Source of the DNA: Thermoleophilia bacterium
GTDB taxonomy: Bacteria > Actinomycetota > Thermoleophilia > RBG-16-64-13
Direction: 5' to 3'
Assembly: GCA_026415615.1 (NCBI GenBank)
Contig: JAOAGT010000002.1
Location: forward strand, 448,545 to 512,544
Length of the DNA stretch: 64,000 bases
In this document: piece by piece, positions 12,026 through 31,768 of the stretch
Position numbering within the stretch: the first letter of the stretch is position 1
Layout of the letters: each line of letters begins with the position of its first letter
Program-made: the position numbers and the translations under genes
Notes under the pieces: model-generated
The model's database searches: none
Told to the model about the DNA's origin: nothing
Seen by the model: the letters and a program-made list of their open reading frames with translations, nothing else

Positions 12026-12066
12026 CTCGGCCCCCCCACCATTTGACTAGCTTGCTCCTCGATACT

Positions 12067-13092: not shown

Positions 13093-13136
13093 GGCCTTGT
13101 GCCCTCCCTTGACGTGTATCGCGCAGAACGCGCCGC

Positions 13137-13634: not shown

Positions 13635-13649
13635 GCTCGTCTCCATTGG

Positions 13650-14447
13650 TTACATTACCGATCCGCCTGAGACATGGAACACCTGTCCAGTCACATAGCT
13701 TGTAATGTCCGAGGCGAGGATCGCAATAGCATTTGCCATATCCCGCGCAGTGCCAAACCGGCCAAGCGGAAACTCACCCATGATGGCTGCCTGTCTTCTT
13801 TTCATCTCCTCTGGGGAAATGTTGGGGTCGGGCTCTCTTAGAATGGCTCCGAAGTTAGTGGGCACAGGACCGGGTGCCACACAGTTAACCCGAATTCCGT
13901 TTTTTCCTTCTACATACGCCAACTGCTTGGTGAACAAGTCGACGGCGTATTTGGAGATGGCGTACATACCCACCCCCATTTGGTACTGATGCGTGCTTCC
14001 CGAACCCACGTTCACGATGACCCCGTAGCCTCGTTCGCGCATATGAGGGACCACCGCCTGGGTGACGTTCATCGTGCCAATCAGGTTTAACTTAAGCTGC
14101 TTTTCCCAGACTGTAGGATCTTGCTTTTCGATGGGTACGTTGTCCTTGTGCAGGATAGCTCCGGCCACATTGCAGAGGATGTCAATCCGCCCAAATTCTT
14201 CGAGGACTTTCTGGACCATAGCTTTGACGGCCGCATTGTCAGTGATGTCGGCGCTTAGGGCAATACATCTTGGGCCCAAGCTGCGCACGGTTTCTGCGGT
14301 CTTGGCCAGGTTCTCCTCATCAATGTCTGTTACGGCGATGGCCTCGATCCCTTCCTCGGCCAACACCAAGGCCGTCTCTCTCCCTATCCCCACCTGGCTA
14401 GCTGCGCCCGTTACGAGGGCCACTTTGTTCTTGAAACCCAGATCCAT
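13650..14447 (-). CDS. short-chain dehydrogenase/reductase (SDR)
   Basis: 265 aa. TGAASQVGIG cofactor loop, NVAG and YAISKYAV (YxxxK). Confidence 0.9.
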   Translation of the reverse strand: MDLGFKNKVALVTGAASQVGIGRETALVLAEEGIEAIAVTDIDEENLAKTAETVRSLGPRCIALSADITDNAAVKAMVQKVLEEFGRIDILCNVAGAILHKDNVPIEKQDPTVWEKQLKLNLIGTMNVTQAVVPHMRERGYGVIVNVGSGSTHQYQMGVGMYAISKYAVDLFTKQLAYVEGKNGIRVNCVAPGPVPTNFGAILREPDPNISPEEMKRRQAAIMGEFPLGRFGTARDMANAIAILASDITSYVTGQVFHVSGGSVM

Positions 14448-14472
14448 GTTCGCGACTCCCTGCTTGTAGTGA

Positions 14473-16320: not shown

Positions 16321-16398
16321 CGCCTACCTCCTTAGCTCGATGACGCCGTATTTATGACTATGGTCTTTATGACCCACTCAGACATCCGTTTGGCTTAG

Positions 16399-17715: not shown

Positions 17716-17724
17716 GGCTGCCTC

Positions 17725-18273
17725 CTACTCTGCTTTACCAGCTGGAGGCTGGGTCTCCGCTGGGGTCGGGGGACTGGTCTGCCGGTAGGCTTTAAAGTAG
17801 TTGACCGCGTGCCTTACTGCCTGGATTGTCAGCACCAGAAACGATATGGGAATGATCATCTCGATGGGCCACTTAACCGGATTAAGCACAGTAGCCAAGA
17901 TGAAGTGGTTGAGGTAGTCGTTGATAGTTAGCCGCGCGGTCAGAAAAAGACATAGGAGGCACAGGGCAACTACTACGCATGAAGTGGCGAAGTTAAGCAA
18001 GTTCTGGGCTCTCTTTGAAAGCATTCCAAGAATGGATTCCATCCTTACATGCCCGTGGTCGCGGTAGATGGCGGCTGTGCCAAGAAAGGTAAGCCACACC
18101 ATCGTGTAGGTCAGAAGCTCATACAAAGGTGCCCAGGTGAAGTCGACTGTCTTTCTGATGATTACGTCCTGTGCTATGGCCAAAGTGTCGAGAAGGATCA
18201 AGATGGCCGAGAGCAGCAGGAGAAAGTTAACAAGCTTGTCAAAAGCTCGGCCAGCTTTCTGTAAGAAGCGCAT
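17725..18273 (-). CDS. TRAP transporter small permease (DctQ family)
   Basis: 182 aa with four hydrophobic segments. Position between the DctP- and DctM-type genes. Confidence 0.8.
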   Translation of the reverse strand: MRFLQKAGRAFDKLVNFLLLLSAILILLDTLAIAQDVIIRKTVDFTWAPLYELLTYTMVWLTFLGTAAIYRDHGHVRMESILGMLSKRAQNLLNFATSCVVVALCLLCLFLTARLTINDYLNHFILATVLNPVKWPIEMIIPISFLVLTIQAVRHAVNYFKAYRQTSPPTPAETQPPAGKAE

Positions 18274-18322
18274 GTCACTAACCTCTCACAGGTTGGTTGA
18301 AGTACGCGCAAGCAGAGAAGCA

Positions 18323-18364
18323 GAGGGCGCGAAGCGGCCCTGGACAGGGCCGCTTCGCGCCCTC
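18323..18364 (-). promoter_or_regulatory. intercistronic 19-bp perfect hairpin between TRAP SBP and permease genes
   Basis: GAGGGCGCGAAGCGGCCCT-GGAC-AGGGCCGCTTCGCGCCCTC. No U-tract on the mRNA strand. Confidence 0.7.
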
Positions 18365-18458
18365 ACTTGGGTCTTGCCTGGTTCCGCAGGATGGCAAACC
18401 ACCCCGATCCGCCTAGCCTACGACCTGTCTAGCCTATGGCTGGCTAATCCAGGCACCT

Positions 18459-19610
18459 TTACTTGGCGCGCTCAAAGTCTGGATTCACGAGCCATTCCTT
18501 GAGCTTGGGGCCAATCTCGGGCCACCTCGCGATGTCTTCGGCCCACATCGACTCGCGGTACTTCAGATAGAACTGCTTTGACTCCTCAGGCGACAGGTGA
18601 ATGATCTTAATACCCGCAGCTTCAAGATCTGCCTTTACCTTTTCCACTGTCTTGTGGAAGTGGTCCGCCATGTCAATCTCGGTTTGAATCATGGCTTGGG
18701 TGAGCACGGCCTTTTGTTTCTCAGTGAGGCTCTCCCACTTCTTGAGGTTCATGATCATCATGCCGCCGCAGGAGCTGAACGGCTCGTCCAGCATAGCCTT
18801 GGTCACAGGCGTGAGTCCGAAGTCCTGAATGCCGGGGATGCCGATGTTGTAGCCGTCGACTGTCCCGCGCTCCATGGCTGTGAAGTACTCAGTAAAGTCT
18901 ATGGGCACGCAGACTGCGCCGAGGGCCTCAATGAAGGAACGGTTGGAACCGCCGGTGGCTGCGATCTTGAGCCCCTTCAAGTCAGCTAGGCCGTTGATAA
19001 CCTTGCCGAGGTAAATGACCGTCTGCTCCTGGGGACGAGACGAGACAGAGGCCCCCAAGTACTTGATGCCGTTCTTAGCAAATTCTTCCTCGTAGTACTT
19101 AAAGGCTGGGTTGCCGTTGCGCAGCTCTGGCGGGCTGTATTCAGCTCGCCCGATGGTGCTGCATCCGGGGACCATGGTGTCGCAATAGGCGGACATTACG
19201 CTCGCGATATCCATCGTGCCCCTTTGTACTGCAGCTGGCTGGTCCGGGGCGGGGATAGCCTCTGGGCCGTTGAACTTGATGGTCATCTTGCCAGCCGAGT
19301 ATTCCTGGACCTTGTTAATGAAGTCGCGGTGCCAGTCGGCTCCCGGGGGAATATCGGGCAAGAAGCAGGCCATGGAAAGCTCGATAGGCTCTACATCAGC
19401 AATTACCTGAGGCCCCGACGCAGCTGTCGTTTCTGTAGATGGCGCAGTAGTCTCAGTGGGCGCAGCCGTAGTGGTTGTCGCGGGTGCTTGGGTGGTAGCG
19501 GTGGTAGCCGGTGCGGCTGTGGTTGTGGTGGCTTCTTCCTCTCCGCACGATACCGCCAGGATAGACAGCGCAAGTACACAGCAAATGGCTATTATGGCCA
19601 GTTTCCTCAT
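18459..19610 (-). CDS. TRAP transporter substrate-binding lipoprotein (DctP family)
   Basis: Preferred start is ATG 19610 (MRKLAIIAICCVLALSILAVSCG lipobox), followed by a Thr/Ala linker. The body is DctP-like. The ORF-track N-terminal 42 aa were judged non-coding. Confidence 0.85.
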   Translation of the reverse strand: MRKLAIIAICCVLALSILAVSCGEEEATTTTAAPATTATTQAPATTTTAAPTETTAPSTETTAASGPQVIADVEPIELSMACFLPDIPPGADWHRDFINKVQEYSAGKMTIKFNGPEAIPAPDQPAAVQRGTMDIASVMSAYCDTMVPGCSTIGRAEYSPPELRNGNPAFKYYEEEFAKNGIKYLGASVSSRPQEQTVIYLGKVINGLADLKGLKIAATGGSNRSFIEALGAVCVPIDFTEYFTAMERGTVDGYNIGIPGIQDFGLTPVTKAMLDEPFSSCGGMMIMNLKKWESLTEKQKAVLTQAMIQTEIDMADHFHKTVEKVKADLEAAGIKIIHLSPEESKQFYLKYRESMWAEDIARWPEIGPKLKEWLVNPDFERAK

Positions 19611-19839
19611 GGTGCCCCCCAATCCTAAGATTGCCTGATTTTGCCAAGTCTGCCTGCTGACGTGGAAGTCATTTCTCGCAAGTGCCGAGATGTGCTCTGG
19701 TCCGCTCCAACCTCCTTTGCTCCCGTTTGCTGTCAAGCCGGAACCTGTTGATCAGTGCCTCCCGGTATCGCCAAGCGTATAGCGTGGTGCTCCCGGGCCG
19801 AGACTGCTACTCCGGCGCGCCCGACTATGTTAGTGAGGA

Positions 19840-19908
19840 CTACTAGCACACGCTACTAGCGAATGCAACCGGTCTGTGTTATGTAGGACAGGTAATCGAG
19901 TTACTAGA
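19840..19908. promoter_or_regulatory. repeated CTACTAGC / TTACTAGA boxes in the TetR-TRAP divergent region (candidate TetR operator)
   Basis: CTACTAGC at 19840-19847 and 19853-19860 (13-bp period). TTACTAGA at 19901-19908. Confidence 0.35.
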
Positions 19909-19971
19909 CAGCGTTCTTACCAGGGCAAGATGCTTCCCTCGGTACTGGGAATGAAAGGCGTGACACACAAC

Positions 19972-20832
19972 ATGGACTACCTTGACTTGCCCGCGGGCAA
20001 GAAAGAAAACACCAAGAAGGATGACGGTACTGGCCCTGAGGGCAACAGTTCGTCGCCACAGACCGGAACCACCCTCACCACCCACACCCGTGAGATCTCG
20101 GGAACTGTAGCTCGCAGTAGTGAGACCGCGGGAACAAACGGAGGAGGCAGCAAGAGGAGCTCCGTATCTCTGCGGTGGAAGACCATGAAGCCCGAACAAA
20201 AGAAGGAGGCGGTTATCAAAGCCGTACTGCGGGTGATAGCCAAACACGGGGTTCAAGGTACCACCACCGCTCGTATCGCTGCAGCTCTGGGGGTATCTGA
20301 GCCGACCATCTACCGAGTTTTCCCGAGCCGGCGGGAAATGCTTCTGGCTGCGGCGCAAAGTCTATGGCGGCAACGCCGTGAAGAGCTCGAGGCGTTTGTT
20401 CCAGTTGACGCTATGGACTATCTAAGGAAGTTATCTGCGCATCACACCGCTGGCATCCAGAAAACCAGAGTAACCCGGTATCTTTACGAGCTTTCGGTTG
20501 CGCGGCCTTCTGATGGACTCCGTGACTACTTGCGCGGGGAAATGATCGCCGAAGCAGAACGTCTTGCGGCTATTGTGGAGCAAGGACAAAAAGAAGGGTG
20601 CATCCGTGCAGACGTAGACCCCGGGGAAACAGCCTGGCGGATCATGACCGTTTACTGGCTTGAGGCTATGGCCCGGCTCCATGGGCTTGAGGACATTCTT
20701 CTCACCGGGTTTTCCACCCGGTTTTTCGACGGGATCCTAACCGACATTGCTGCCGCGCCTCTAGATGCACCAGGTGAGCAGCAAACTGTAGGGCAAAGTA
20801 GCGTCAAAGCGAGCGGTCTTGAGGGAGTGTGA
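19972..20832 (+). CDS. TetR/AcrR family transcriptional regulator
   Basis: HTH TTARIAAALGVSEPTIYRVFPSRREML. The start is uncertain: candidate starts are the ORF-track start at 19876 and ATG at 19972 and 20185. The HTH begins right after 20185, and the region before it is low-complexity. Confidence 0.8.
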   Translation: MDYLDLPAGKKENTKKDDGTGPEGNSSSPQTGTTLTTHTREISGTVARSSETAGTNGGGSKRSSVSLRWKTMKPEQKKEAVIKAVLRVIAKHGVQGTTTARIAAALGVSEPTIYRVFPSRREMLLAAAQSLWRQRREELEAFVPVDAMDYLRKLSAHHTAGIQKTRVTRYLYELSVARPSDGLRDYLRGEMIAEAERLAAIVEQGQKEGCIRADVDPGETAWRIMTVYWLEAMARLHGLEDILLTGFSTRFFDGILTDIAAAPLDAPGEQQTVGQSSVKASGLEGV

Positions 20833-20836
20833 ATAG

Positions 20837-22093
20837 ATGGATCACCAGTCTCCGCAAGTCTTGTACCAAGAGAGATTAAAGAGGATTGAGGACGCCATAG
20901 CACTGCGCCAGCCGGATAGAGTCCCGATCGTGATGTCTGCCGGATATTTTCTGGCTGATCTGGGAGGCATTACCAAACAGCAGCTGCTTGAGGACCCTGA
21001 ACTTTGCCAACAGCTGCTAGAAAAGGCCGCCCTTGAATTTCAGCCTGATTCAATCTGGGGTCCTATGCCGGCGGATCCAACTCCCTCCCTTATTCTGGGG
21101 GACAGACAGAGCGCTTGGCCCGGACACCAGCTTTCGCCCAACAGCCAGTTCCAGTTCGTTGAAGGCGAATTCATGAAGGAAGACGAGTACGAGGAATTCC
21201 TGGAAGATCCCACCGACTGGACCATCCGCACCTATTTGCCGCGGGTGTTTGGGGCGCTTGAAAGCTTTGCGCAGCTGCCGCCTCCGATTCTGTTCCTGTT
21301 TGGCGGGGGTTTTGGCCTTTCTAATTTTGCAATGCTGACCTCAGGGGCATTCGCGGAGTCTTTCAAAGCTTTTGCCAAGGCCTTACAGGCGGTAGCCGAA
21401 GGCCATGAGCGGGCAGCCAGAAATCATGAGCGCATGGCGGCGTTGGGTTTTCCGCCGAGCTTCATGAACGGTCCGATTCTAACCGCTCCCTTCGACGTGA
21501 TGTCTGATGCGGTTCGTGGGATGCGCGGCATTATGCTCGACGTTATTCGGCGTCCCGACAAGCTGCTTGCGGCGCAAGAAAAGGTGATGCGCTTTGAGCT
21601 TAAGTGGGCTCTTGATTTTTGCCGGGCTACGGGCGCAAAGAGAGCTTTTCTGCCTCTTCACAGGGGGTCGGATGGCTTCATGTCGCTGAAGCAGTTTGAG
21701 ACCTTGTACTGGCCGCAGCTGAAGAAGGTTCTCGAGACCCTCATAGAGAACGGCGTGACCCCCGTGGTGTTCTACGAAGGCTGCTGGAATCAAAGACTGG
21801 AGTATCTAGCGGAGCTACCCAAGGGCAAGAGCGTAGGATGGTTCCAAGCAAGCGACATCTTCAAAGTCAAGGAAGTGCTTGGCGACACCATGTGCATCAT
21901 GGGGGGGATGCCAAACTCGCTGCTTAAGGCTGGTCCTGCCGAGGAGGTGCGTGCGTTCACCAAACGCCTTTGCGAAGAGGTTGGCAAGGGCGGGGGATTC
22001 ATCATGACCACCGCGGTTGGCGAATTGGCTGGCTGCGATCCGGATCTCATCAAGGTGTGGGTGGAGGCGACCAAGGAATTTGGGAAAGCTTAG
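20837..22093 (+). CDS. uroporphyrinogen decarboxylase (URO-D)-like / MtaA-CmuA-type methyltransferase superfamily protein
   Basis: 418 aa, starting 4 nt after the TetR stop, RBS GAGGGAG. Begins ...RLKRIEDAIALRQPDRVPIV... and ends with a URO-D-like barrel. Assignment is by overall pattern only. Confidence 0.6.
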   Translation: MDHQSPQVLYQERLKRIEDAIALRQPDRVPIVMSAGYFLADLGGITKQQLLEDPELCQQLLEKAALEFQPDSIWGPMPADPTPSLILGDRQSAWPGHQLSPNSQFQFVEGEFMKEDEYEEFLEDPTDWTIRTYLPRVFGALESFAQLPPPILFLFGGGFGLSNFAMLTSGAFAESFKAFAKALQAVAEGHERAARNHERMAALGFPPSFMNGPILTAPFDVMSDAVRGMRGIMLDVIRRPDKLLAAQEKVMRFELKWALDFCRATGAKRAFLPLHRGSDGFMSLKQFETLYWPQLKKVLETLIENGVTPVVFYEGCWNQRLEYLAELPKGKSVGWFQASDIFKVKEVLGDTMCIMGGMPNSLLKAGPAEEVRAFTKRLCEEVGKGGGFIMTTAVGELAGCDPDLIKVWVEATKEFGKA

Positions 22094-22123
22094 CAAAGCA
22101 CAGGAAAGCTTAGGAATGAAACC

Positions 22124-22858
22124 ATGGACCTCAAGTTGAAGGATAAAGTTGCGCTCGTTACAGGAGCAGGGAGTCCCATAGGCTATGGCAGGGCAATTGC
22201 TCTCACCCTGGCCGAAGAGGGCTGTCGAGTTGCCTGTGCTGACCTACGACTTGACTGGGCAGAGGAGACCGCTGCCCTAATCAGAGAGGCAGGCGGCGAA
22301 GCCTTCGCAGTCAAGGTTGACGTGACCGACATGGCCCAGGTGGAGGCCATGGTGGAGGCGGTTGTTGCCCGATACGGGCGGATCGACATTCTCGTTAACA
22401 ACGCTGGCAAAAGCAGCATCGACAAACCTTTCATGGAAAAGACCCGGGCAGACTGGGATCTCGATATTCAGGTGAATTTGTATGGCCAAATGAACGTGGC
22501 GCGCGCAGTGATTCCTCACATGGCCAGGCAAGGCTATGGGCGCATCATTAACACTTCCGGCGGGCAGGGCTTGCCGACCGTATCCACTTACGGAGCAGCC
22601 AAAGCAGGGGTGGAAGCATTTACACATTCGTTGGCCATGGAGGTTGCCTCCTTGGGGATCATCGTAAACGCCATTGCCCCGGGGCTGGGGGAGACCGGCC
22701 TGATTTCGGCCAGCGAAGAACACAAAGAGGGGTATCGGCGTATGTCGGCCCTAAAACGCCTTTGCACTCCAGCCGACGTGGCACCTGCGGTGGCGTTTCT
22801 AGCTTCGGATGTTTGTAGCTACATGGTTGGGCAGTGCCTCAGGTTGAGTACCCACTAG
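22124..22858 (+). CDS. short-chain dehydrogenase/reductase (SDR)
   Basis: 244 aa. TGAGSPIGYG, NNAG and YGAAKAGV. Confidence 0.9.
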   Translation: MDLKLKDKVALVTGAGSPIGYGRAIALTLAEEGCRVACADLRLDWAEETAALIREAGGEAFAVKVDVTDMAQVEAMVEAVVARYGRIDILVNNAGKSSIDKPFMEKTRADWDLDIQVNLYGQMNVARAVIPHMARQGYGRIINTSGGQGLPTVSTYGAAKAGVEAFTHSLAMEVASLGIIVNAIAPGLGETGLISASEEHKEGYRRMSALKRLCTPADVAPAVAFLASDVCSYMVGQCLRLSTH

Positions 22859-22873
22859 CAAGGAGTACCAGTC

Positions 22874-23095
22874 ATGGCCATACGTCACTTTAGTCGTGAC
22901 GATTGCACGGGATGCGGGATATGTGTCGCTGCGTGTCCCATGGATGTGCTTCGTCTGGATGAGGAAGCGCAGAAGGCAACCGTAAGCTATCCCGACGACT
23001 GCATCGCCTGCTGGGGTTGCGAGTCGTTCTGTCCGCAGGGTTGTTTCGATATTTCTCCCGAACGGGCCCGCGGGGAGCTACCCGCTCCTTACTGA
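22874..23095 (+). CDS. 2x[4Fe-4S] ferredoxin
   Basis: 73 aa. CTGCGICVAACP and CIACWGCESFCP. Confidence 0.9.
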   Translation: MAIRHFSRDDCTGCGICVAACPMDVLRLDEEAQKATVSYPDDCIACWGCESFCPQGCFDISPERARGELPAPY

Positions 23096-23133
23096 GTCTC
23101 GCGGAGTAACAAAGGCGAGTGGGAAGGAAAGAC

Positions 23134-24849
23134 ATGAGAGGCTGGGATCAAACGCCGGTTAGGATTGCTGCCGATGTGCTGGTGCTGGGAGCGGGCGGTG
23201 CTGGCATGTGTGCGGCGCTTAAAGCGCGGGAAATCGGCGCTGATGTTCTGATGGTAGACAAGTGCGGCATCGGCTACAACGGGCAGGTGCCTATCGGGGG
23301 CGGCATACTCGCGTACATTTACCCCTCCTACGTAGAGACGTGGGTTGAGAAAGTTACCCGCCAGAGCCATTTCTTCAACAACCAGGAATGGACGTATCTC
23401 TTTGGCCGCTCAATGGACCCAGTTACTACTGAGCTTGCGAAGCTAGGGCTCACATTCTTGCGGAAAGAGGGCGAGATCGAGATTCTAACCTGGGGTCCAA
23501 ATATCCATGTGACGCTATTTGACGCGCCCAAGTCCTTAGTGGCCCTAAAAAGAACAGCCGCCGCCCGGGGCGTGCGCATGATGGACAAGATTTTTGCTGT
23601 CGATCTGCTCAAGAAAGACGACCGTGTGGTAGGAGCGGTGGCCTTTGGGTTGGTAGATGGGCGGGTTTATGTTTTTGATGCCAAGGCAGTAATTGTTGCC
23701 ACCGGGAACTGCGGCTACCAGCATGAAAAAACTTACAGCTCCGTCCAAGGCGAGGGCCCAGCTATGGGTTATCGAGCGGGGGCCAAACTCACCAACGCCG
23801 AGTTCAACAGCATGTACGTGTGGGGAGCTAAGGTCCTTGGCAAGGAGTTAATGGGCATCCATTACTACCTGTATCTCGAGAACGCCCGGGGAGAAAAGAT
23901 TATGGGCAAGCACTATCCGGAGCTGATGGTAGGAAAGCATGCCGTCTACACCTTTGATCCTCGGGTTATTGACGCCATGTACAAAGAGGTCCAGGCTGGG
24001 CTAGGACCCATCTATCTAAACCTCACGGGGCTGAGCGAGGAAGAAATTGCAGGGCTTGCCGAAGACGTCGTGGAAGAACTCTCTCATCTTATGGCAAACG
24101 ACTCCATGCGTTTGCTTCGGGAAAAGGCCGGCATTGATCCCACGAAAGAGCGCATCGAAATGTGGCCTCGTCTGTTGTACACGGGGGGCGGCATGCTGGT
24201 GGACACAGAGTGTCGAACGACTGTCCCAGGTCTTTGGGCGGCGGGGGGAGCGTGCAGCACCTTGTGGACTAACGGCGGCGGTGGTCAGGGCGGTCTAGGG
24301 GTACAGAACGCCGCGGTTACTGGATTTGTCGCTGGGGAGAGTGCAGCCAAATGGGCGGCGGAGACAACGCTTGTGCGCGCCGATGATGCCCATGTTGAGC
24401 AAGTTGTGGGGCGGATTATTGAGCCGCTTGTGCGGGAAGGGGCGGGCGACCCGTACGAGGTCACCTACCGAGTACATGAAGCAATAGTTCCCATGAAGTA
24501 CAACCGCATCCGAGAGGCTACTAGGATGCGTGAGGCACTGGGGATCTTGGCGGATGCGCGCGAAAAACTGTCTCGTATAAGCGTCCGCAATTTCCACGAT
24601 CTAGCCCGTTATCACTCAGCAGAAAGCATGCTGATGGCGGCGGAGTTTACCTACCAGGCTGCTTTAATGCGCCAGGAGAGCAGAAGCCAGCACTATAGAG
24701 AAGATTTCCCCGCGCGAGACGACGCAAATTGGCTTAAGTGGATCACGATCGAAAAGGGGGCAAACGGCCCCGAGCTTGGTGTTGTACCCGTGCCCTTGGA
24801 GAAGTACCCGCTCAAACCAGACTGGTGGCCAGCATTGAGCGGGAATTAG
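23134..24849 (+). CDS. FAD-dependent oxidoreductase, fumarate reductase/succinate dehydrogenase flavoprotein-like (FAD_binding_2)
   Basis: DVLVLGAGGAGMCAALKA dinucleotide fold. Late GLWAAGGA motif. ATG 23134 after GGGAAGGAAAG (the ORF-track GTG 23119 is also possible). Confidence 0.8.
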   Translation: MRGWDQTPVRIAADVLVLGAGGAGMCAALKAREIGADVLMVDKCGIGYNGQVPIGGGILAYIYPSYVETWVEKVTRQSHFFNNQEWTYLFGRSMDPVTTELAKLGLTFLRKEGEIEILTWGPNIHVTLFDAPKSLVALKRTAAARGVRMMDKIFAVDLLKKDDRVVGAVAFGLVDGRVYVFDAKAVIVATGNCGYQHEKTYSSVQGEGPAMGYRAGAKLTNAEFNSMYVWGAKVLGKELMGIHYYLYLENARGEKIMGKHYPELMVGKHAVYTFDPRVIDAMYKEVQAGLGPIYLNLTGLSEEEIAGLAEDVVEELSHLMANDSMRLLREKAGIDPTKERIEMWPRLLYTGGGMLVDTECRTTVPGLWAAGGACSTLWTNGGGGQGGLGVQNAAVTGFVAGESAAKWAAETTLVRADDAHVEQVVGRIIEPLVREGAGDPYEVTYRVHEAIVPMKYNRIREATRMREALGILADAREKLSRISVRNFHDLARYHSAESMLMAAEFTYQAALMRQESRSQHYREDFPARDDANWLKWITIEKGANGPELGVVPVPLEKYPLKPDWWPALSGN

Positions 24850-24900
24850 CTGGTAGTTGGATAGGCGGCCCTCAACGGTAAAGGAGGCGGGAAGAGCGCG

Positions 24901-26367
24901 ATGGTAAGCAAAGAAAGACTGGCAGAGATAGTAGGGGCTGCGAATGTCAGCAGCGAGCCGGATGTTCTTGAGCAGTACGCCAGGGACGTGAGTTTTGTCA
25001 ATCATACAAGACCGGCGTACGTGGTTAAGCCCCATACCGCCCAGGAGGTCAAGGACCTTGTCAAACTGGCCAACGAGAGCCGTACGCCTCTGGTGCCAGT
25101 GAGCTCGGGCCCACCGCACTTTCGGGGAGATACGGTGCCCACAGCGGGCGGGGCGGTGGTGGTAGACCTGAGTGAGATGAAACGCATCGTGTTTGTGGAT
25201 CGCCCGCGCAGAGTGGCCATGGTTGAGCCAGGCGTGACCTTTGGAGAACTCATTCCGGCTGCCACCAAGGAAGGGATTAGGCTAAACATGCCTCTCTTGC
25301 CTAGAACGACCAAGACAGTCGTGGGCAGCATGTTAGAGAGGGAACCTGTGGTCATGCCCAAGTATCAGTGGGACATCTCCGATCCCTTGGCGTGCGTTGA
25401 GGTAATCTTCGGCACGGGTGACGACTTCCGCACGGGCCAGGCCGCTGGACCCGGCACCATCGAAGAGCAGTGGCAGGTCGGGGGAGTGCAGAAAGCCCCC
25501 TACGGGCCTCACATTACCGCGTGGCATAGGCTCATTCAGGGAGCTCAGGGAACCATCGGAATCGTGACCTGGGCCTCTTTGCGCTGTGAGCTGCTGCCTC
25601 GGTTACAGGAGCCTTACGTCGTAGCAAGTGCGCAGCTGGGACCTTTGGTGGAGATGGCAGCCTGGTTGATTCGGCTAAGGATGGCCAACGAGTGCTTCAT
25701 TTTGTCGAATGCCAACCTGGCTGCGATCTTTGCCGAAGACTGGCCAAACGATTACGTCAAGCTAAAAGCCTCTCTGCCCTCTTGGACATTGTTCTACGTT
25801 CTGGCCGGCTACGAGTACTTCCCCGAAGAGAGGGTGGCGTCATATCAGAAGCAAGTCGTATCTCTTTGTCAGCGCCTAGCTCTGGAGCCGCTGCGGGCGG
25901 TGGGCGGACTTTCTGCGCGCAGCATCATGAAAGCTGTGCAGAACGTGTGCCCCGAACCCTACTGGAAGCTCCGCTACAAAGGCGCCTCAGAGGACGTGTT
26001 CTTCCTTACCACCAACGACAAGGTGGAAGGATTTGTAAGTACGATGCAGGCTCTTGCTGCCGAGGTAGGGTACGCTGCCTCTGACTTAGGAGTCTATGTC
26101 CAGCCAGTGGTGCAAGGTACGGCTTGTCACGTAGAGTTCAACCTCTTCTACGATCCAGGTGACAGCAAAGAAGTCGAGCGGACTAGATGTCTTGCCGGCA
26201 TTGCCACGAAAGCGTTCTTGGATGATGGCGCCTTCTTCTCTCGTCCATACGGCGAGTATGCCCGGGACATCATGAATCGCGATGCTGCGTCGCTAGATGT
26301 GCTTAAGAAGCTGAAGGGGATCTTTGATCCCAACAACATCATGAACCCGGGCAAGCTTTGCTTCTGA
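24901..26367 (+). CDS. FAD-linked oxidase (FAD_binding_4; GlcD / D-lactate dehydrogenase-like)
   Basis: 488 aa, RBS AAAGGAGG. PHTAQEVKDLVKLANESRTPLVPVSSG... and a C-terminal LKGIFDPNNIMNPGKL. Confidence 0.85.
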   Translation: MVSKERLAEIVGAANVSSEPDVLEQYARDVSFVNHTRPAYVVKPHTAQEVKDLVKLANESRTPLVPVSSGPPHFRGDTVPTAGGAVVVDLSEMKRIVFVDRPRRVAMVEPGVTFGELIPAATKEGIRLNMPLLPRTTKTVVGSMLEREPVVMPKYQWDISDPLACVEVIFGTGDDFRTGQAAGPGTIEEQWQVGGVQKAPYGPHITAWHRLIQGAQGTIGIVTWASLRCELLPRLQEPYVVASAQLGPLVEMAAWLIRLRMANECFILSNANLAAIFAEDWPNDYVKLKASLPSWTLFYVLAGYEYFPEERVASYQKQVVSLCQRLALEPLRAVGGLSARSIMKAVQNVCPEPYWKLRYKGASEDVFFLTTNDKVEGFVSTMQALAAEVGYAASDLGVYVQPVVQGTACHVEFNLFYDPGDSKEVERTRCLAGIATKAFLDDGAFFSRPYGEYARDIMNRDAASLDVLKKLKGIFDPNNIMNPGKLCF

Positions 26368-26429
26368 GCTTTGCTTCTGAGGCGAGGCCTGTTGGTGAGA
26401 CATTGGTCGTAGCAGAAGGAAGGAGCGAG

Positions 26430-27704
26430 ATGGCATTAGAAGATTACGCCGGTGACATGAACATGTGTTGCCGCTGCTCGGCATGCAAGTTCATACCACT
26501 GCAGATGATCAAAGGGTATAAGCATGCCTATGTGTGCCCCAGCATCTCCCGGTACAACTTCCACTTCTTCTCTGGCGGCGGCAGACTGAACCTGGGGGTG
26601 GCGGGGCTGGAGCAGGGGTTCAAATACACGCCCTGGTACCTCTCCAGTGTCTATAACTGTCAGCAATGCGGCGCCTGCGACGTGTCCTGCAAGTACGGCA
26701 TGGACATGGAGGTCCTGCTTCCCATCCAGGAGCTTCGCATCAAGGCAGTGGAAGACGGGCATGCGCATCCGGCTCTGGCGCGCGTGGTGGAGCGGATGAA
26801 CAAGACCGGGAGCATGGTCCCCATGGAAGGGGCAAGCCGTGGGGACTGGGCTGCGGACTTGGGCCTCAAAGACGCCACCCAAGAGAAGGTGGAGGTTCTC
26901 TACCACGTAGGGTGCCTGACCAGCTTTGATAAGGATATGCAGGCGGTGGCTCGGGCGACGGCCAAGGTACTTGGCGCGGCCGGGATTGACTTTGGCATCC
27001 TGGGCGATGCCGAGACCTGCTGTGGGGGGCGCGCCTACGAGATGGGCCACAAGAATGACTTCATGACTCAGGCCAAGAAGAGCATGGAGGTCATCCGGTC
27101 CACTGGGGCAAAATTCCTGGTCACGAGCTGCGCCGAGTGCTACCAGGCCTACAAGGTTCTCTACGATCGTTTTGGCCTACGGAATGATTCGGAGCTTAAG
27201 GTTCTCCATACCTCTCAGCTTCTAGACGAGGTGATAAGCCAGGGCAACCTCAAGCTAAGTGGCCGGGTCGATCTGTGTGTTACTTATCACGATCCTTGCC
27301 ATCTGGGCAGACTAGGAGAGCCCTGGATCCACTGGCAGGGTAAAAAAGTGCCGGGCGACCGCTTCATCTTTGACCCGCCGAAGCCTTACCGCCGCGGCAC
27401 TAACGGGGTATACGAGCCGCCGCGCCGGGTGCTAAAAAGCGTACCCGGGGTGATTCTCGAGGAGATGGACCGCATAAAGGAATACGCGTGGTGCGCTGGT
27501 TCGTGCGGTGGTGTTACCGACTCCAATCCGGAGTTTGCCGAATGGACCGCCGAGCAGCGTCTCGAAGAGGCGCTCTGCACAGGCGCGGAGGCGATTGTCT
27601 CGGCTACCCCGTGGGGCGAGAAGCTCCTGCGCGATGTCGCAAAGAAGAACGACGTGCAGCTCGAGGTTTATGACCTTGTTGAACTGGTCGCCCAGGCTAT
27701 CTAG
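26430..27704 (+). CDS. Fe-S oxidoreductase with two CCG domains (GlcF / heterodisulfide-reductase-D-like)
   Basis: ATG 26430 after GAAGGAAGGAG. CCRCSACKFIP and CQQCGACDVSC cluster motifs. CCGG...YHDPCHLGR CCG-domain signatures. Confidence 0.85.
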   Translation: MALEDYAGDMNMCCRCSACKFIPLQMIKGYKHAYVCPSISRYNFHFFSGGGRLNLGVAGLEQGFKYTPWYLSSVYNCQQCGACDVSCKYGMDMEVLLPIQELRIKAVEDGHAHPALARVVERMNKTGSMVPMEGASRGDWAADLGLKDATQEKVEVLYHVGCLTSFDKDMQAVARATAKVLGAAGIDFGILGDAETCCGGRAYEMGHKNDFMTQAKKSMEVIRSTGAKFLVTSCAECYQAYKVLYDRFGLRNDSELKVLHTSQLLDEVISQGNLKLSGRVDLCVTYHDPCHLGRLGEPWIHWQGKKVPGDRFIFDPPKPYRRGTNGVYEPPRRVLKSVPGVILEEMDRIKEYAWCAGSCGGVTDSNPEFAEWTAEQRLEEALCTGAEAIVSATPWGEKLLRDVAKKNDVQLEVYDLVELVAQAI

Positions 27705-27721
27705 GAAGGAGGTCGAAAGCC

Positions 27722-29212
27722 TTGGCACTTACTAAGGAAATGTATGAGGCGTTCGCAGGGGTAGTGGGGGAAGAGAATCTCTGCGACGATCCCGCCATGA
27801 TGGCTGCTTATTTCCGCACGGATTTTGCGGCGGTGGTGATGCCCAAGGACACTGCCGAAGTCCAAGCGGTCGTCAGATTGTGCAATAAGTTCAAGCTAAA
27901 GTTTAGGCCCATATGTACAGGCTGGACGGGAGTCTTCCAGCCGGGCAGCGTTCTGCTTGATCTGCGGCGGATGAACCGCATCATCGAGATCAACGAAAAG
28001 AACATGTATGCGGTAGTGGAGCCGTACGTGACTTCTGCCCAGCTGCAGGCTGAGCTGTTTAAGCGAGGGCTGAACACCAACATGAAGGGGGCAGGAGCCC
28101 AGTGTTCGGCCATGCTTCGGGGCCACGGACATCTCGATCAGTCGTGTGGCGCTGACGATCGCAATCACCTAGCTGTGGAGTGGGTGACTCCCGAGGGCGA
28201 GCTGGTCAAGATGGGATCCTGGGGCGCCATCGGTGAGTGGTTCTGTGGCGATGGGCCAGGCCCCTCTTTGCGCTCCCTTGTGTCCAGTGTGGTTCCGCCG
28301 AGCACCACTCCGGGCGTCTTCACCAAGGTGGCGATGAAGCTTTATCACTGGCCGGGGCCTGATAAGTACGCGCTGGAGGGCTACTCTCCCAAATATACGT
28401 TGCGGGAGTTTCCGCCCAACATGATGGCTCGGTACTACAGCTTCCCCACGCTTGAGAAGATGTGGCAGGCGGAGATTGCCATCGGCGAGGCGGAGATCGC
28501 TCTTGAGCTCATGGGCTTCAACGCGGCCATGGTGGCGGCGAATATCACCACCTGCAACGAAGAAGAAATGGCCATGTTTGAACGCCTCTCTAAGGAGGTG
28601 CAGGGGCCGGGCTTCTTTGTGATCATAGCTGGCGATTCTCCAGAAGACTTTGCCTACAAGAAAAAGGTCCTTGAGACTATCGTCAAGGAAAATGACGGGC
28701 AGTCGCTTAAGACAGTCGAAGATCCGGAGCTTGAGGGTATCCTGCTTACGCAGTGCACAAGAATCAGTGCATCAGTTCGGGAGACGTTCCGACCGGGTGG
28801 GTACTTCAAGTCGATTCCCATCATGGGTCAACGTGACCTTACTATTCGTTGGGCTGTAGGTGCTGGCAAGGCCAAGCTCCCGCTTATTGAGCAGGGTCTT
28901 ATTGCCGATGACGGTGGCGGATTCTTCGGCTGGGGAGTGGAGCACGGTCATCTCGGCAAGACGGAGATCTTCTGCAAGTTCAGTCCGCTTAATCCCGAGG
29001 CCTGGAAAGCGGTTAACAAGTGGCACCAGGAGCAGGTCCAGCGGGCGCTTGACGAAAAGTACTTTGCTCTCACCATGGGGCCGCAGGAAGAGATCGACAA
29101 GAAGGTTGGGCCCGCTCTCTCGAACTATCACTTGTGGTGGTACAAGGTGCTCGACGCCTTAGACCCCAACGGAGTGGTGCCTGACAAGGGCCTGAGCAAT
29201 CTTACGCCGTAG
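27722..29212 (+). CDS. FAD-linked oxidase-like protein (FAD_binding_4, GlcE-like position, divergent)
   Basis: 496 aa, TTG start after GGAAGGAGG. PKDTAEVQAVVRLCNKFKLKFRPICTGWTG... resembles the FAD_binding_4 N-terminus with a non-canonical Gly loop. Confidence 0.7.
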   Translation: MALTKEMYEAFAGVVGEENLCDDPAMMAAYFRTDFAAVVMPKDTAEVQAVVRLCNKFKLKFRPICTGWTGVFQPGSVLLDLRRMNRIIEINEKNMYAVVEPYVTSAQLQAELFKRGLNTNMKGAGAQCSAMLRGHGHLDQSCGADDRNHLAVEWVTPEGELVKMGSWGAIGEWFCGDGPGPSLRSLVSSVVPPSTTPGVFTKVAMKLYHWPGPDKYALEGYSPKYTLREFPPNMMARYYSFPTLEKMWQAEIAIGEAEIALELMGFNAAMVAANITTCNEEEMAMFERLSKEVQGPGFFVIIAGDSPEDFAYKKKVLETIVKENDGQSLKTVEDPELEGILLTQCTRISASVRETFRPGGYFKSIPIMGQRDLTIRWAVGAGKAKLPLIEQGLIADDGGGFFGWGVEHGHLGKTEIFCKFSPLNPEAWKAVNKWHQEQVQRALDEKYFALTMGPQEEIDKKVGPALSNYHLWWYKVLDALDPNGVVPDKGLSNLTP

Positions 29213-29217
29213 GGGGT

Positions 29218-29253
29218 GGGCGGGCGCAGGCCCTGCAGGGCCTGCGCCCGCCC
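29218..29253 (+). terminator. terminator hairpin ending the plus-strand operon
   Basis: Perfect 18-bp palindrome GGGCGGGCGCAGGCCCTG/CAGGGCCTGCGCCCGCCC followed by CCTTT. Confidence 0.75.
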
Positions 29254-29359
29254 CCTTTCAGTACCCGTCCAATACGTGGGCCGGGAGTGTAGACTTTCTA
29301 GCCTGCTTCGCGCAGCGCTTCTCTCTTGTTTGTTTCGATAACGGCAAGGAGGTTGCGGT

Positions 29360-30883
29360 TTGACAGCCCTACCCGAGAGAACAGCAAGCTGGTGCCAAGC
29401 GTTGTTCTTTGCTGGATCCACGACCTACATGTGGAATCAGGCGCCGGAGCTTAAAGCGCTTTTCTTGACGGCCTGCTCCTTCGAGGAAGGTATGGACGTA
29501 CTCCTTATAGGCAAGTTCTTGGAGGAAAGCGGTCTTGTTTCGGCCGTTGAGTCGATCCTACGGAGCTGGGGCAATCTGCGGGTAGTGGACTTGGCTCCCC
29601 AGGTTGTGGCTGCATGGCGGGCGGCGGGTGTGGCAGATGAGCAGCCTTCTTTCAAATGGGATCTTGATTGTTTTGATGAGCTCAGAGATGGGAGTCTCGA
29701 CCGTGTCGTGTTGTTTAACGCGGCCTCCCACGTTGCGGACTGGGAACATCTGTCTGCTCAAATCGGCCGGGTTCTTTGTCGAGGAGGCCGGGTTGTAGTC
29801 GCAGAGGCTCCACTGGGCGGGGCTGCTTTTAAACGCGCCCTTGCCTTTCACGCAGGATGGCGAGCAACGGTCGAAGGATTGCTTAGCGGCTTGGATCTAG
29901 AAGAAAGGGCAGTTGCTCCGCCAGAACCGGAGGATCTCAGGGCTCTGCTTGCCCAGCATATGACTTGGGCTCGTGTGCATGAGTGGCAGGGAATCTTTAT
30001 TTGCTACGGACAAAAAGGTCTCACAGAAAGGGAGGAGCTGGAAGCGTCCACAGCTGCCGAGATGGCCGGTCTGGGGGAGAATGATCTGGTCTACGTACCC
30101 GGTCCGGACACGTTTACAGCTTTTCCGCCGGCCAACATCTGGGTGCGCAGTTTCTTGAAGGTGCGTCCAGTGCGCACCACGTGGAGCCTTATGAGCGAGC
30201 TTGAGAAGGAAATTTGGGCAGACACCGCTGTAGAACTAGTGACACACTCAGGTGGCGATCTGTCAACAAATAAGGTGCTGGGGCTTAGCTTGATCGTCGA
30301 GTCGCCACAATCTGAGTTGGCGTCGCAGACACTGGTTTTGACGAAGCCTGCTGCAATAGGAGATGCGCTAGGAGGCTTTTCTCATCACTGGGCTTCTGGG
30401 CTTGTCGGCGCGTTTCTGGAATGCTTCCTGGGTCCAGATGATGGCCACCTTGCAAAGGTTGGAGAAACGCATGGTCCTTCTGAGCTGGGAAGTCTTGTTG
30501 CCAGACACTCGGCAGACGAGCTTGATCTTCTTTTTGTTGACGCCAGACTGGGTGACAGACACTACTGGAAGGAAACAATATCCCTCCTGTTGCCGGTTCT
30601 AAAACCCGGGGGCCGGCTTGTGTTATTTGCGGAAGATGGCGATGCTATCCAGCTGCTGTCGTTTCACAGCGCCTTCGCGCGCCTGCTTCTGGCAAGACTA
30701 GTGACTCCAGCAGACCCACTCGCTGCAGACTCCGCGGACGCGCTCTGTAACCGACTGACGGGCGGCATAAATATGGACCCCGAGTTGCTGCGCCAAGTGC
30801 TTGCAGGGTTCTTTGATGAGATCTCTGTGGCAGGACACGGCGGCTTCGTATTTGTGTCTGGCCGAAAACCTATGCGTCTTTAG
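29360..30883 (+). CDS. uncharacterised degenerate methyltransferase-like protein, paralog of 7864-9591
   Basis: 507 aa, TTG start after AAGGAGG. The N-terminal ~200 aa align with 7864-9591 by eye (WCQALFFAG..MWN..PE.KA.FL..CSFE.GM.V.L(I/V)GK(F/Y)L.ESGL...SLDRVV(L/F)FN...HVA(D/N)WEH....I.RVL...GR.V(V/M)AEAPLGG). The C-terminal half is diverged. Confidence 0.75.
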   Translation: MTALPERTASWCQALFFAGSTTYMWNQAPELKALFLTACSFEEGMDVLLIGKFLEESGLVSAVESILRSWGNLRVVDLAPQVVAAWRAAGVADEQPSFKWDLDCFDELRDGSLDRVVLFNAASHVADWEHLSAQIGRVLCRGGRVVVAEAPLGGAAFKRALAFHAGWRATVEGLLSGLDLEERAVAPPEPEDLRALLAQHMTWARVHEWQGIFICYGQKGLTEREELEASTAAEMAGLGENDLVYVPGPDTFTAFPPANIWVRSFLKVRPVRTTWSLMSELEKEIWADTAVELVTHSGGDLSTNKVLGLSLIVESPQSELASQTLVLTKPAAIGDALGGFSHHWASGLVGAFLECFLGPDDGHLAKVGETHGPSELGSLVARHSADELDLLFVDARLGDRHYWKETISLLLPVLKPGGRLVLFAEDGDAIQLLSFHSAFARLLLARLVTPADPLAADSADALCNRLTGGINMDPELLRQVLAGFFDEISVAGHGGFVFVSGRKPMRL

Positions 30884-30900
30884 ACAACCTATGCGTCTTT
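30867..30900. repeat. 19-bp tandem duplication spanning both convergent stop codons
   Basis: AACCTATGCGTCTTT at 30867-30881 and again at 30886-30900, with the units separated by AGAC. The plus-gene stop TAG is at 30881-30883 and the minus-gene stop at 30889-30891. Confidence 0.85.
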
Positions 30901-31200
30901 GGGCTCGCTGGGGCTGTTCTGTGGGCTGTCAGAGAAGAGACTCTCAAACCGACGCGCGGCTTTTTCTTTTTCTGCCTCCTGAGCAGCTCTTACTTTCGAT
31001 GCGGCTTCTTCCAGGGCCACTTTGTGTTGCTCTGCCCGGGCAAGCAGAGTGTCAAGCGAGACCTCCGGCTGCTCCTTCGCCACTTGCTTTAGGATAAAGA
31101 GCACTTCCTCTTGCAGCGTCCGCTGATTGTATGCCGCTCGCATGCGCAAGGCCCGGACTACTTCGTCGGGTACGTTTTTTATGGTCAGGGTGGTAGCCAT
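30889..31200 (-). CDS. ribbon-helix-helix (Arc/FitA/VapB-type) antitoxin-like protein, no cognate toxin adjacent
   Basis: Preferred start is ATG 31200. MATTLTIKNVPDEVVRALRMRAAYNQRTLQEEVLFILK is the classic plasmid-stability/RHH N-terminus. Confidence 0.7.
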   Translation of the reverse strand: MATTLTIKNVPDEVVRALRMRAAYNQRTLQEEVLFILKQVAKEQPEVSLDTLLARAEQHKVALEEAASKVRAAQEAEKEKAARRFESLFSDSPQNSPSEPKDA

Positions 31201-31219
31201 TACATTGACGCTCCTGCGT

Positions 31220-31768
31220 TCAAAGCCTAAGTACCAACAAGCGGGCTCGCTCTTCAATTCGCCTTAGCTCCGCTTCATCAGGAAGACCTTTGATGTTGCC
31301 CATTCTTCCTCTTGTGCTCAGTTCCTCAGACCCATGGAACTCAGAAAGCACATACCATTCATCTAGCACAGCGAACCCTAGGTGCTCAAAAAACTGCGCA
31401 GCGTACATGCCAGCTGGGATGGCCTCTCTGAGCCCCGTGTGTGGTCCCGAGAAAGTGCAGAAAATTAAGGCATTTCTGTTAGGCAGGCGCGGTGCTCCTG
31501 GCAAGACCCTGCCTTGATGGCGATACTGTTCAAACTTGCTCTTTAGATAATCATCCATGGCCCGGGGCGGATGCCAGTTGTAAGACGGAAACCCCAGGCA
31601 GACAAGATCAAAATCAAAGAAGTCAAGATCTCCAGCCTCTTCTACTGGACGCAAGGTAGTGGCCATTCCTCCGGCGCGGAGTCCTGCTTCGATGGCCCGA
31701 GCTACCTTGGCTGTATTTCCTGTGCGTGACCAATAAAGCACCAGGGCAGTTCTTGGCGCGTTGGTCAT
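31220..31768 (-). CDS. flavodoxin family protein
   Basis: 182 aa. LVLYWSRTGNTAKVA FMN phosphate loop. RBS GAGGTAGAGGA. Confidence 0.8.
   Translation of the reverse strand: MTNAPRTALVLYWSRTGNTAKVARAIEAGLRAGGMATTLRPVEEAGDLDFFDFDLVCLGFPSYNWHPPRAMDDYLKSKFEQYRHQGRVLPGAPRLPNRNALIFCTFSGPHTGLREAIPAGMYAAQFFEHLGFAVLDEWYVLSEFHGSEELSTRGRMGNIKGLPDEAELRRIEERARLLVLRL

Follow-up and report, generated by a model that had tools for sequence, protein, structure and literature searches.

Two anciently diverged paralogs of a rare methyltransferase-like family flank a catabolic gene cluster in a Thermoleophilia bacterium

Results

The window analyzed here, a 64,000-nucleotide stretch of a Thermoleophilia bacterium contig, carries two members of one protein family, both on the plus strand. 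Gene A (7864–9591) encodes a full-length, two-domain member of 575 aa. Gene B (29360–30883) encodes 507 aa from a TTG start and is a truncated, degenerate paralog of the same two-domain methyltransferase-like family. A tblastn search of the window returned only these two copies. The 19.77 kb between them holds a divergent, TetR-centered gene set, in agreement with the shared strand and the interval of about 19.8 kb given in the original prediction. The leftmost gene of this set (9744–11111, minus strand) encodes a Peripla_BP_6 solute-binding protein (Pfam E 6e-46). The catabolic cluster at 11285–29212, assigned by Pfam, has the same gene order in the comparison contig L001. Its minus-strand genes encode SnoaL_4, two proteins with no assigned function, an SDR, AFOR, and TRAP DctMQP. 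Its plus-strand genes encode TetR, a URO-D-like protein, an SDR, FAD_binding_2, FAD_binding_4, CCG/Fe-S, and a further FAD_binding_4 protein.

On the right, B converges with a FitA-like RHH gene and a flavodoxin-like gene (30889–31768, minus strand; Pfam). This right-hand context is conserved, as the pair also adjoins B in L001 and L004 (identity in L004, 81% and 87%). The stop codons of B and RHH meet at a 19-nt tandem duplication (AACCTATGCGTCTTT twice, 30867–30900), which is missing in L001 and L004, where the 3′ ends of the two genes overlap.

Two strong, GC-rich hairpins mark the gene junctions. Between the convergent A and Peripla_BP_6 genes, a perfect 21-bp inverted repeat (9603–9654, z −6.4) begins 11 nt after the stop codon of A and folds on both strands (ΔG −54.6 and −55.8 kcal/mol), as had been anticipated for the end of A. 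The second, a GC-rich hairpin on the plus strand and a putative terminator (29213–29256, ΔG −47.4 kcal/mol, z −4.6), lies between the plus-strand operon and B. It starts directly after the stop codon (29212) of the last operon gene, and the TTG of B lies 103 nt beyond it, close to the predicted spacing of about 105 nt. This hairpin is whole in the window and in L001; in L004 only its 3′ half falls within the contig, at the contig start. Neither hairpin has a clear T-run, which is why a simple terminator scan missed both. A 39-aa “gene” upstream of B in L004 overlies the conserved hairpin; we regard it as spurious and, for that reason, not as evidence for translational coupling to B.

The TTG start of B is supported by a Shine–Dalgarno sequence, AAGGAGG (29346–29352, plus strand), read directly 7 nt ahead of it, and by an in-frame stop codon 21 nt upstream. 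L001 keeps AAGGAGG, and L004 has the similar AAGGGAGG. Domain 1 of B (residues 1–225, 29360–30034) comprises cap helices and a Rossmann-like domain, with a predicted structure of pLDDT >90. The interdomain linker (residues 226–300, 30035–30259) bears the motif FLKVRPVRTTWSLMSELEKEIW, common to the A-type proteins (A, P0004–P0007, and P0112–P0130). Domain 2 (residues 301–507, 30260–30880) is a vestigial second methyltransferase-like domain in which residues 380–507 form a confident fold, and both halves of B are confidently predicted to fold. The AF2 model of A contains two Rossmann-like domains, and its best Foldseek matches are tandem phosphoethanolamine methyltransferases. The predicted structures of A and B have the seven-stranded, Rossmann-like α/β fold of class I methyltransferases.

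The similarity between the two proteins is highly significant when properly computed. By BLASTP, B (29360–30880) and A (7864–9588) share 126 of 312 positions (40%, E 2e-66), with B6–303 opposite A46–339. The alignment therefore covers about 300 aa, including the domain 1 and linker homology to the A-type family, and exceeds the ~200 aa first noted. The C-terminal halves are also homologous, as a profile comparison indicates (hhalign probability 98.5%, E 3e-15, 227 columns, 22% identity). At the DNA level, the best block is 71% identical over 152 nt, against a by-eye estimate of about 60%. Over the aligned domain 1, identity is ~51–53%, with only ~30% at third codon positions. Synonymous sites are hence saturated, and the duplication is old, as had been proposed.

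The divergence is unevenly distributed. In domain 1, B is 46% identical to A, while A-type orthologs are 52% identical among themselves. In domain 2, the corresponding values are 16% and 75%, which bears out the predicted loss of second-domain motifs. B does not match the conserved domain 2 motifs (KPGDKVMxIxEF..., YDFADxYPD, PQGVHHCNNW, WLVGPLxPxGPLP, and GWILFWGYK), with homology still detectable. The N-terminal 45 aa, 73% identical among A-type orthologs, are deleted in B, and the conserved segment IPxPYPPKxHWEYNLYEYHKGLPDQSHY is missing from B and its two orthologs. To judge from these alignments, B has lost the two best-conserved parts of the A-type proteins.

In the family tree, B is placed inside the A-type clade. 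A first neighbor-joining tree put B as the sister of A, a placement that we dropped on the basis of raw identities and denser sampling. With that sampling, the sister of B is P0006/P0125 in 65% of bootstrap replicates and A in 29%; a subclade holding A, B, P0006, and P0125 has 76% support. On these sequences, A and B are genuine paralogs of ancient divergence, located on either side of the cluster, and A is not clearly the nearest relative of B.

Relative to L001, B has a dN/dS of 0.27 overall, with 0.20 in domain 1, 0.08 in the linker (its most constrained part), and 0.43 in domain 2. The neighboring genes have values of 0.004–0.07; compared with the operon genes, B is higher by a factor of 4 to 70. 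Each segment of B shows significantly lower pN than pS (p 2.7e-20 overall; C-terminal half, p 1e-5). All three known B-bearing contigs, from lineages separated by a dS of ~1.7–2, carry an intact reading frame. B is fast-evolving and degenerate, yet under purifying selection. That B is a functionless remnant heading toward a pseudogene is suggested by the highest dN/dS in its neighborhood, the N-terminal truncation, the decayed domain 2 motifs, and the non-ATG start. We consider this quite unlikely in view of the intact frame in three lineages, the deficit of nonsynonymous change in each segment, the strong Shine–Dalgarno sequence, and the confident predicted folding of both halves.

The family is very rare. 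An exhaustive HMMER search of 1.84 billion proteins yielded 58 cluster representatives, and a word-indexed search gave 5 matches. It comes in two-domain, single-domain, and signal-peptide-bearing forms and recurs beside solute receptors in catabolic gene clusters from anaerobic Actinomycetota and Chloroflexota. A profile scan of a genome collection that did not include the source genome gave no match with a six-sequence alignment; with a broader alignment, the same type of scan found two loci, neither with a B-type gene. No NCBIfam model came near its cutoff for A or B; the corrinoid-associated methyltransferase CpaM, considered as a candidate identity, was rejected at 14.5 bits against a 180-bit cutoff. 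Pfam Methyltransf_11 clears its gathering threshold of 21.2 bits in both proteins, but the matches omit motif I: 33.6 bits in A at profile positions 55–95 only, and 32.2 bits in B at positions 12–95 only. A PDB sequence search with the two-domain profile likewise gave a match confined to the region after motif I. Literature searches on pseudo-methyltransferase/Rossmann proteins and on Thermoleophilia/AFOR/TRAP found nothing relevant.

Discussion

The most distinctive feature of the family is its cofactor loop. The glycine-rich motif I (E/D-x-G-x-G-x-G) is absent from both domains of A and from domain 1 of B, where the corresponding sequences are VGKYLWESG, IGEFLHDLG, and IGKFLEESG, respectively. 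In all three, Y or F stands in place of the second glycine of GxGxG. Family-wide, the loop has the pattern G-[K/E]-[F/Y or small]-[L/I]-x. The family profile aligns to RebM and MitM free of indels, with G-C-G-[I/V]-G in these enzymes opposite G-E-x-[L/I]-x. By its sequence, “pseudo-methyltransferase” seems a reasonable label for this loop. We infer that the family may bypass canonical SAM use, and the terms “non-SAM” and “pseudoenzyme” are used here in that inferred sense. The signal peptides found in one subclade argue against SAM use in that subclade.

Two considerations count against the non-SAM reading. Strand 2 still ends in the acidic residue that would contact the ribose hydroxyls (ILD117 in A, VVD in B, as located by alignment and predicted secondary structure only), and almost every family member has D or E at this position. 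An irregular motif I is also tolerated by some bona fide class I methyltransferases, such as TPMT and COMT. A and B might then be conventional SAM-dependent methyltransferases, active on small molecules despite an unusual motif I. We find this unlikely, since Phe/Tyr in place of the second glycine and an acidic or polar residue in place of the third form a pattern conserved throughout the family, no NCBIfam model fits, one subclade is signal-peptide-bearing, and the structural neighbors include the nonmethylating anamorsin and SpnF.

Among the closest known systems are the Methyltransf_11/UbiE–Coq5 class I methyltransferases (RebM, 3bus; MitM, 8zc8; Coq5, 4obw). The A/B family differs from them in its loop, in the hydrophobic residue that takes the place of the acidic one before it, in an N-terminal cap bearing PW-x-Y and W-N motifs, in the tandem arrangement of its domains, and in the signal peptides of some members. 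Didomain methyltransferases with one vestigial domain, namely nematode PMT-1/PMT-2 (4krh, 4kri, and 4ine) and RsmC (2zwv), are also close. However, these keep one canonical SAM-binding domain, whereas A and B lack the canonical loop in either domain, and sequence identity to the A/B family is only 9–17%. The N-terminal domain of anamorsin/CIAPIN1 (4m7r and 2yui) and the SpnF cyclase (4pne), both among the structural matches, share the fold but use the cofactor in an altered way or not at all. Beyond the fold, no sequence relationship to A and B is detectable, and their biology is different (eukaryotic Fe–S assembly and polyketide cyclization).

In the window, and also at five other loci spread over six contigs (L007/L008, L013, L006, L034, and L035), a Peripla_BP_6 gene lies directly beside an A-type gene; the binding protein of L034 is 30% identical to that of the window (E 2e-56). 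Elsewhere, a TctC receptor adjoins a distant family member in L014. Family members sit beside extracytoplasmic solute receptors (Peripla_BP_6, TctC, and DctP) and genes of organic- or aromatic-acid catabolism. A and the gene at 9744–11111 most likely form a conserved module. Homologs of PadR, of a 348-aa protein, and of a SnoaL protein, which are neighbors of A-type genes elsewhere, were not found in the window. An apparent 106-aa gene following the A-type gene in L003 proved to be an antisense ORF inside the latter. B has neither of the recurrent neighbors, Peripla_BP_6 or a PadR/MarR regulator. It is flanked by the hairpin and FAD_binding_4 upstream and by the RHH and flavodoxin-like genes downstream. 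It is known in three contigs only (window, L001, and L004), each time after the operon-end hairpin. Because the source organisms of these contigs are related, the gene order they have in common says little in either direction.

The original prediction took the two paralogs to bracket the cluster in a meaningful way and offered two origins for the arrangement. What stands is that ancient paralogs flank the cluster and that A is linked to its left-edge Peripla_BP_6 gene; neither proposed origin is upheld. The first, an ancestral tandem A–B pair split by insertion of the 19.8 kb cluster, would account for two genes on the same strand, only 20 kb apart, in an extremely rare family and in one subclade with P0006 and P0125. 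Such a split should leave adjacent copies where the cluster is absent, the synteny comparison proposed at the outset, yet two adjacent copies occur at none of ~20 distinct family loci. The features of a mobile island are also missing: no integrase family is represented among the annotated genes, the two flanks are not similar to each other, no repeat flanks the cluster, and G+C is flat through the region (0.55–0.58). The only tRNA (4472–4548) lies 3.3 kb upstream of the start of A, not at a border. Moreover, the Peripla_BP_6 gene, which would be the edge of the insert, is the usual neighbor of A-type genes in other genomes. The junction of B with the operon is older than the split of the three B-bearing lineages, and only 29% of bootstrap replicates join B to A. 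Together, these observations make a split pair very unlikely.

The second origin, one functional partner per operon boundary, would make both proteins working accessories of the cluster, A for the minus-strand arm and B for the plus-strand arm. Several findings are compatible with it: the family recurs in catabolic and transport clusters with SnoaL, SDR, UbiD, Amidohydro_2, AFOR, and solute-binding proteins; the operon adjoins B at all three B loci; and B is under purifying selection. However, B is set apart from the operon by the hairpin and a leader of ~100 nt, its evolution is far faster than that of the operon genes, and it no longer has the most conserved modules of the family. Elsewhere, A-type genes are not accompanied by TetR, TRAP, AFOR, or GlcDEF-like genes, with two exceptions. 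In L008, a gene 7 kb away from the A-type member encodes a homolog (35% identity, E 7e-71) of the URO-D-like protein of the cluster, and this speaks for a cluster accessory; in L022, AFOR and DctP are near a distant family member. On balance, we consider such a role for both proteins rather unlikely.

We lean, with modest confidence, toward B as an intact, separately translated, degenerating paralog and toward the bracketing as two separate local histories, not bookends or an insertion scar. According to this proposal, B would descend from an old duplication inside the family's Thermoleophilia/Actinomycetota branch. Its first 45 residues and the motifs of domain 2 would have been lost afterward, while domain 1 and the linker were kept under purifying selection. 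B would occupy a slot of its own, with the hairpin closing the plus-strand operon on one side and the convergent RHH–flavodoxin pair on the other. With A in a module with Peripla_BP_6, the bracketing would follow from two separate local histories. A may work with the binding protein on an imported acid; B, if it acts at all, may be a pseudoenzyme that binds or scaffolds by means of domain 1 and the linker.

Some observations count against separate histories. B adjoins the operon at every known B locus, and the neighborhoods of L008 and L022 described above recall the cluster. Chance alone would also seldom place two paralogs of so rare a family within 20 kb, so that a local duplication or a functional link may have a part in the arrangement.

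A broader idea, to which we give little credence, is that a class of methyltransferase-fold proteins, some of them extracellular, has abandoned canonical SAM chemistry and partners solute-binding-protein uptake in anaerobic organic- or aromatic-acid catabolism. B would then be a lineage-specific pseudoenzyme retained to regulate or scaffold the GlcDEF-like oxidoreductase operon next to it.

As the bracketing probably reflects no mechanism, the observation that drew attention to the locus is of limited importance in itself. It exposed, however, a very rare family with no characterized member, in which the commonest methyltransferase fold has its cofactor loop replaced in a conserved way. If the family is SAM-independent, it would be a further case of the methyltransferase fold reused for a different job, and the blanket annotation of its members as “SAM-dependent methyltransferase” would be corrected. 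B itself offers a clean natural case of a tandem protein in which one domain decays and constraint persists on the other one and on the linker.

Results and Discussion

Gene A (7864-9591, plus strand), a full-length member of a two-domain methyltransferase-like family, and its shorter paralog B (29360-30883, plus strand) flank a TetR-centred catabolic cluster, one at each end, as the original prediction had it; ORF listing and Pfam annotation bear out the shared strand and the cluster between them. By ORF listing and translation, A encodes 575 aa from an ATG and B 507 aa from a TTG, with AAGGAGG 7 nt and an in-frame stop 21 nt upstream of the latter. The proposed similarity is significant once computed: BLASTP aligns A46-339 with B6-303 at 40% identity over 312 aa (E 2e-66). 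A weaker match of A342-520 to B18-191 (22%, E 1e-6) shows A to consist of an internal tandem repeat of a single domain type. No third family copy was found in the 64 kb window by tblastn. The best DNA block shared by A and B is 71% identical over 152 nt; across the aligned first domain, identity is about 52%, and about 30% at third codon positions. Synonymous sites are thus saturated and the duplication is old, in line with the earlier claim.

NJ analysis of domain 1 puts the B clade (100% bootstrap) within the Actinomycetota group of A-type proteins, the two-domain members resembling A. B is sister to A in a 30-sequence NJ tree, at a bootstrap of only 39%. When 23 sequences and 268 columns are used, 76% of replicates support a clade of B, A and the database proteins P0006 and P0125; B joins P0006/P0125 in 65% and A in 29%. 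The raw identity of B is 0.39-0.44 to A versus 0.44-0.45 to P0006, P0125 and P0112. The long branch of B makes its placement unreliable, and duplication of A within the genome is a possible origin, not a demonstrated one.

The C-terminal half of B is homologous over its whole length to A-type domain 2 (hhalign probability 98.5%, E 3e-15, 22% identity). This indicates a full-length paralog and rules out a fusion protein. Domain 2 is 75% identical among A-type orthologs and 16% between B and A, which substantiates the claimed loss of second-domain motifs. The N-terminal 45 aa, 73% identical among the orthologs, are deleted in B; domain 1 is 52% identical among the orthologs and 46% between B and A. 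B has lost precisely the two modules under the strongest constraint in the family, and retains the one under the weakest. We propose that the functional core of A would comprise domain 2 and the N-terminal segment, and that any action of B would be limited to domain 1 and the linker.

Such losses could be read as those of a dying gene. Relative to its ortholog on contig L001 (81% amino-acid identity), B has a dN/dS of 0.27 as a whole, 0.20 in domain 1, 0.08 in the linker and 0.43 in domain 2. Against L001 orthologs, other window genes give 0.004 and 0.047 (FAD_binding_4, 27722-29212 and 24901-26367), 0.019 (SDR, 22124-22858), 0.045 (CCG/Fe-S), 0.065 (flavodoxin-like) and 0.068 (URO-D-like). 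Between contig L004 and the window, B is 59-62% identical, and the adjoining RHH and flavodoxin proteins 81% and 87%. In every segment of B, pN is significantly below pS (overall p 2.7e-20; C-terminal half 1e-5), the reading frame remains intact in three lineages with a dS of about 1.7-2 between them, and the second domain is still folded in the AF2 prediction. These observations argue against a pseudogene; B is a relaxed yet maintained gene.

B and its orthologs have been found on three contigs only: that of the window, L001, and L004, which is one and the same as L021. In each, the hairpin precedes B and convergent RHH and flavodoxin genes follow it; in L001 the match extends over the entire plus-strand operon. 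The hairpin has been retained in L001, and the L004 contig opens with its 3' half. Because the B-bearing organisms are related, the shared arrangement is ordinary conservation of synteny. No A ortholog in the database is more than 65% identical, so none represents the L001 or L004 organism. At L033 10389-10697, about 2.4 kb downstream of an A-type gene and likewise convergent, lies a homolog of the RHH protein convergent with B (30889-31257; 52% identity, 103 aa, E 8e-24). It may be left over from a common ancestral context or be there by chance.

On the minus strand, the cluster carries Peripla_BP_6, SnoaL_4, two genes without a Pfam family (12067-13092, 341 aa, with no match even at E 0.01, and 13137-13646, 169 aa), SDR, AFOR and TRAP DctM/Q/P; on the plus strand, TetR, URO-D-like, SDR, FAD_binding_2, FAD_binding_4, CCG/Fe-S and FAD_binding_4. 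Peripla_BP_6 directly adjoins the A-type gene in the window (7864-11111) and at five other loci on six contigs (L007/L008, L013, L006, L034, L035). The binding protein nearest to the window's is that of L034 (30% identity, E 2e-56), and eight binding-protein queries find a single such gene in the 64 kb window by tblastn. An A-type gene and Peripla_BP_6 form a conserved module. A's usual partner is thus the outermost gene on the left of the "island", and the boundary first drawn on that side divides a conserved pair.

The flanking had been explained either by insertion of the cluster into an ancestral tandem pair or by two accessories functionally tied to it. The bracketing idea has only partial support: the paralogs do occupy the two ends of the cluster. 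Among about 20 distinct loci with A-type or more distant members, no two family copies are adjacent, and no locus carries the window's TetR, TRAP, AFOR or GlcDEF-like set. Marks of mobility were not found either: G+C is flat, the flanks lack mutual similarity, and the only tRNA found lies 3.3 kb upstream of the A start, which argues against an inserted island. We propose that A belongs with the neighboring binding protein, that B is an old, lineage-restricted, degenerating paralog in its own transcriptional slot, and that the flanking is historical.

Links to cluster families elsewhere are loose and inconsistent between loci. L008 encodes a URO-D-like protein (9836-11146; 35% identical to that at 20837-22093 in the window, E 7e-71) 7 kb from its A-type gene, and L022 has AFOR and DctP near a distant member. 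A PFL-like glycyl radical enzyme (L008 6149-8683) lies, with the URO-D-like protein, 3-7 kb downstream of the A-type gene. After Peripla_BP_6, the second recurrent neighbor of family genes is a PadR or MarR regulator (L002, L003, L005/L010/L011, L012, L032 and L033), and Peptidase_S15/PepX_C hydrolases lie next to them at L034, L035 and L022. Distant members adjoin a TctC receptor, UbiD and Amidohydro_2 (L014) or lie inside a Liv-type ABC, SnoaL_4 and SDR cluster (L030). In the window, a molybdopterin oxidoreductase (41589-44093, minus strand) whose first domain resembles AhtL, the pyrogallol hydroxytransferase large subunit, suggests that the region at large serves the anaerobic breakdown of aromatic or polyphenolic compounds.

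Family members are very scarce: a word-indexed protein search with B returned 5 proteins, and exhaustive HMMER searching of 1.84 billion cluster representatives gave 58 hits at E<=1e-3, of which 12 reached E<=1e-30. Members are two-domain proteins of 460-590 aa or single-domain proteins of about 240 aa, annotated at source only as "SAM-dependent methyltransferase"; no NCBIfam model comes near its cutoff. In fold and in some of its motifs, the family matches class I methyltransferases. When a profile of the single-domain relatives is aligned to RebM and MitM, their G-C-G-[I/V]-G corresponds, without any indel, to G-E-x-[L/I]-x. The second glycine is replaced by Tyr or Phe (VGKYLWESG and IGEFLHDLG in A domains 1 and 2, IGKFLEESG in B domain 1), and the acidic residue following strand 2 is kept. 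Conservation of this replacement across the family points to a selected feature rather than decay. As the defining glycine loop is absent, we do not file A and B as ordinary, canonical SAM methyltransferases.

In one subclade (P0010, P0084-86, P0133, L016 526-2505, L019 4295-6070, L020 2681-4399), a Ser/Thr/Pro-rich linker follows an N-terminal signal peptide, an arrangement that is hard to reconcile with SAM-dependent chemistry. Its members also share the C-terminal tail YPMADWWHxYPYxQKFVP. Secretion is unusual for a protein of the methyltransferase fold. Given the loop replacement and this subclade, "pseudo-methyltransferase" is a fair working label rather than a proven one. A is probably a non-canonical binding or catalytic methyltransferase-fold protein with an imported organic or aromatic acid as its target. 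A tandem protein with one decayed domain, as B is, has parallels in the nematode PMT enzymes and RsmC, but in the present family neither domain is canonical. In L006 (10001-11588; Chloroflexia MAG CAVVVB010000023.1), the A-type gene gives two tblastn segments, split by a frameshift near 11299 with the ORF ending at 11320; either the gene is a pseudogene or the long-read assembly is in error.

Both predicted hairpins are real. That beyond A (9603-9654; perfect 21-bp stem, dG -54.6 kcal/mol, z -6.4) begins 11 nt past the stop, and that before B (29213-29256; dG -47.4 kcal/mol, z -4.6) comes straight after the stop of the final gene in the plus-strand operon, B starting 103 nt later. Directly upstream of A (5549-7818) are a minus-strand ArsR-family regulator and LytR_cpsA_psr, a 546-aa protein; the other A-type loci do not show this neighbor. 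A gap of 45 nt separates the end of the LytR gene from the A start, so the two may be co-transcribed. Where the stops of B and the convergent RHH gene meet, the window has a 19-nt tandem duplication at 30867-30900 (AACCTATGCGTCTTT twice, period 19). In L001 and L004, which lack it, these genes overlap by 11-14 nt; in the window the repeat has pulled their 3' ends apart, so that each gene has a copy to itself.
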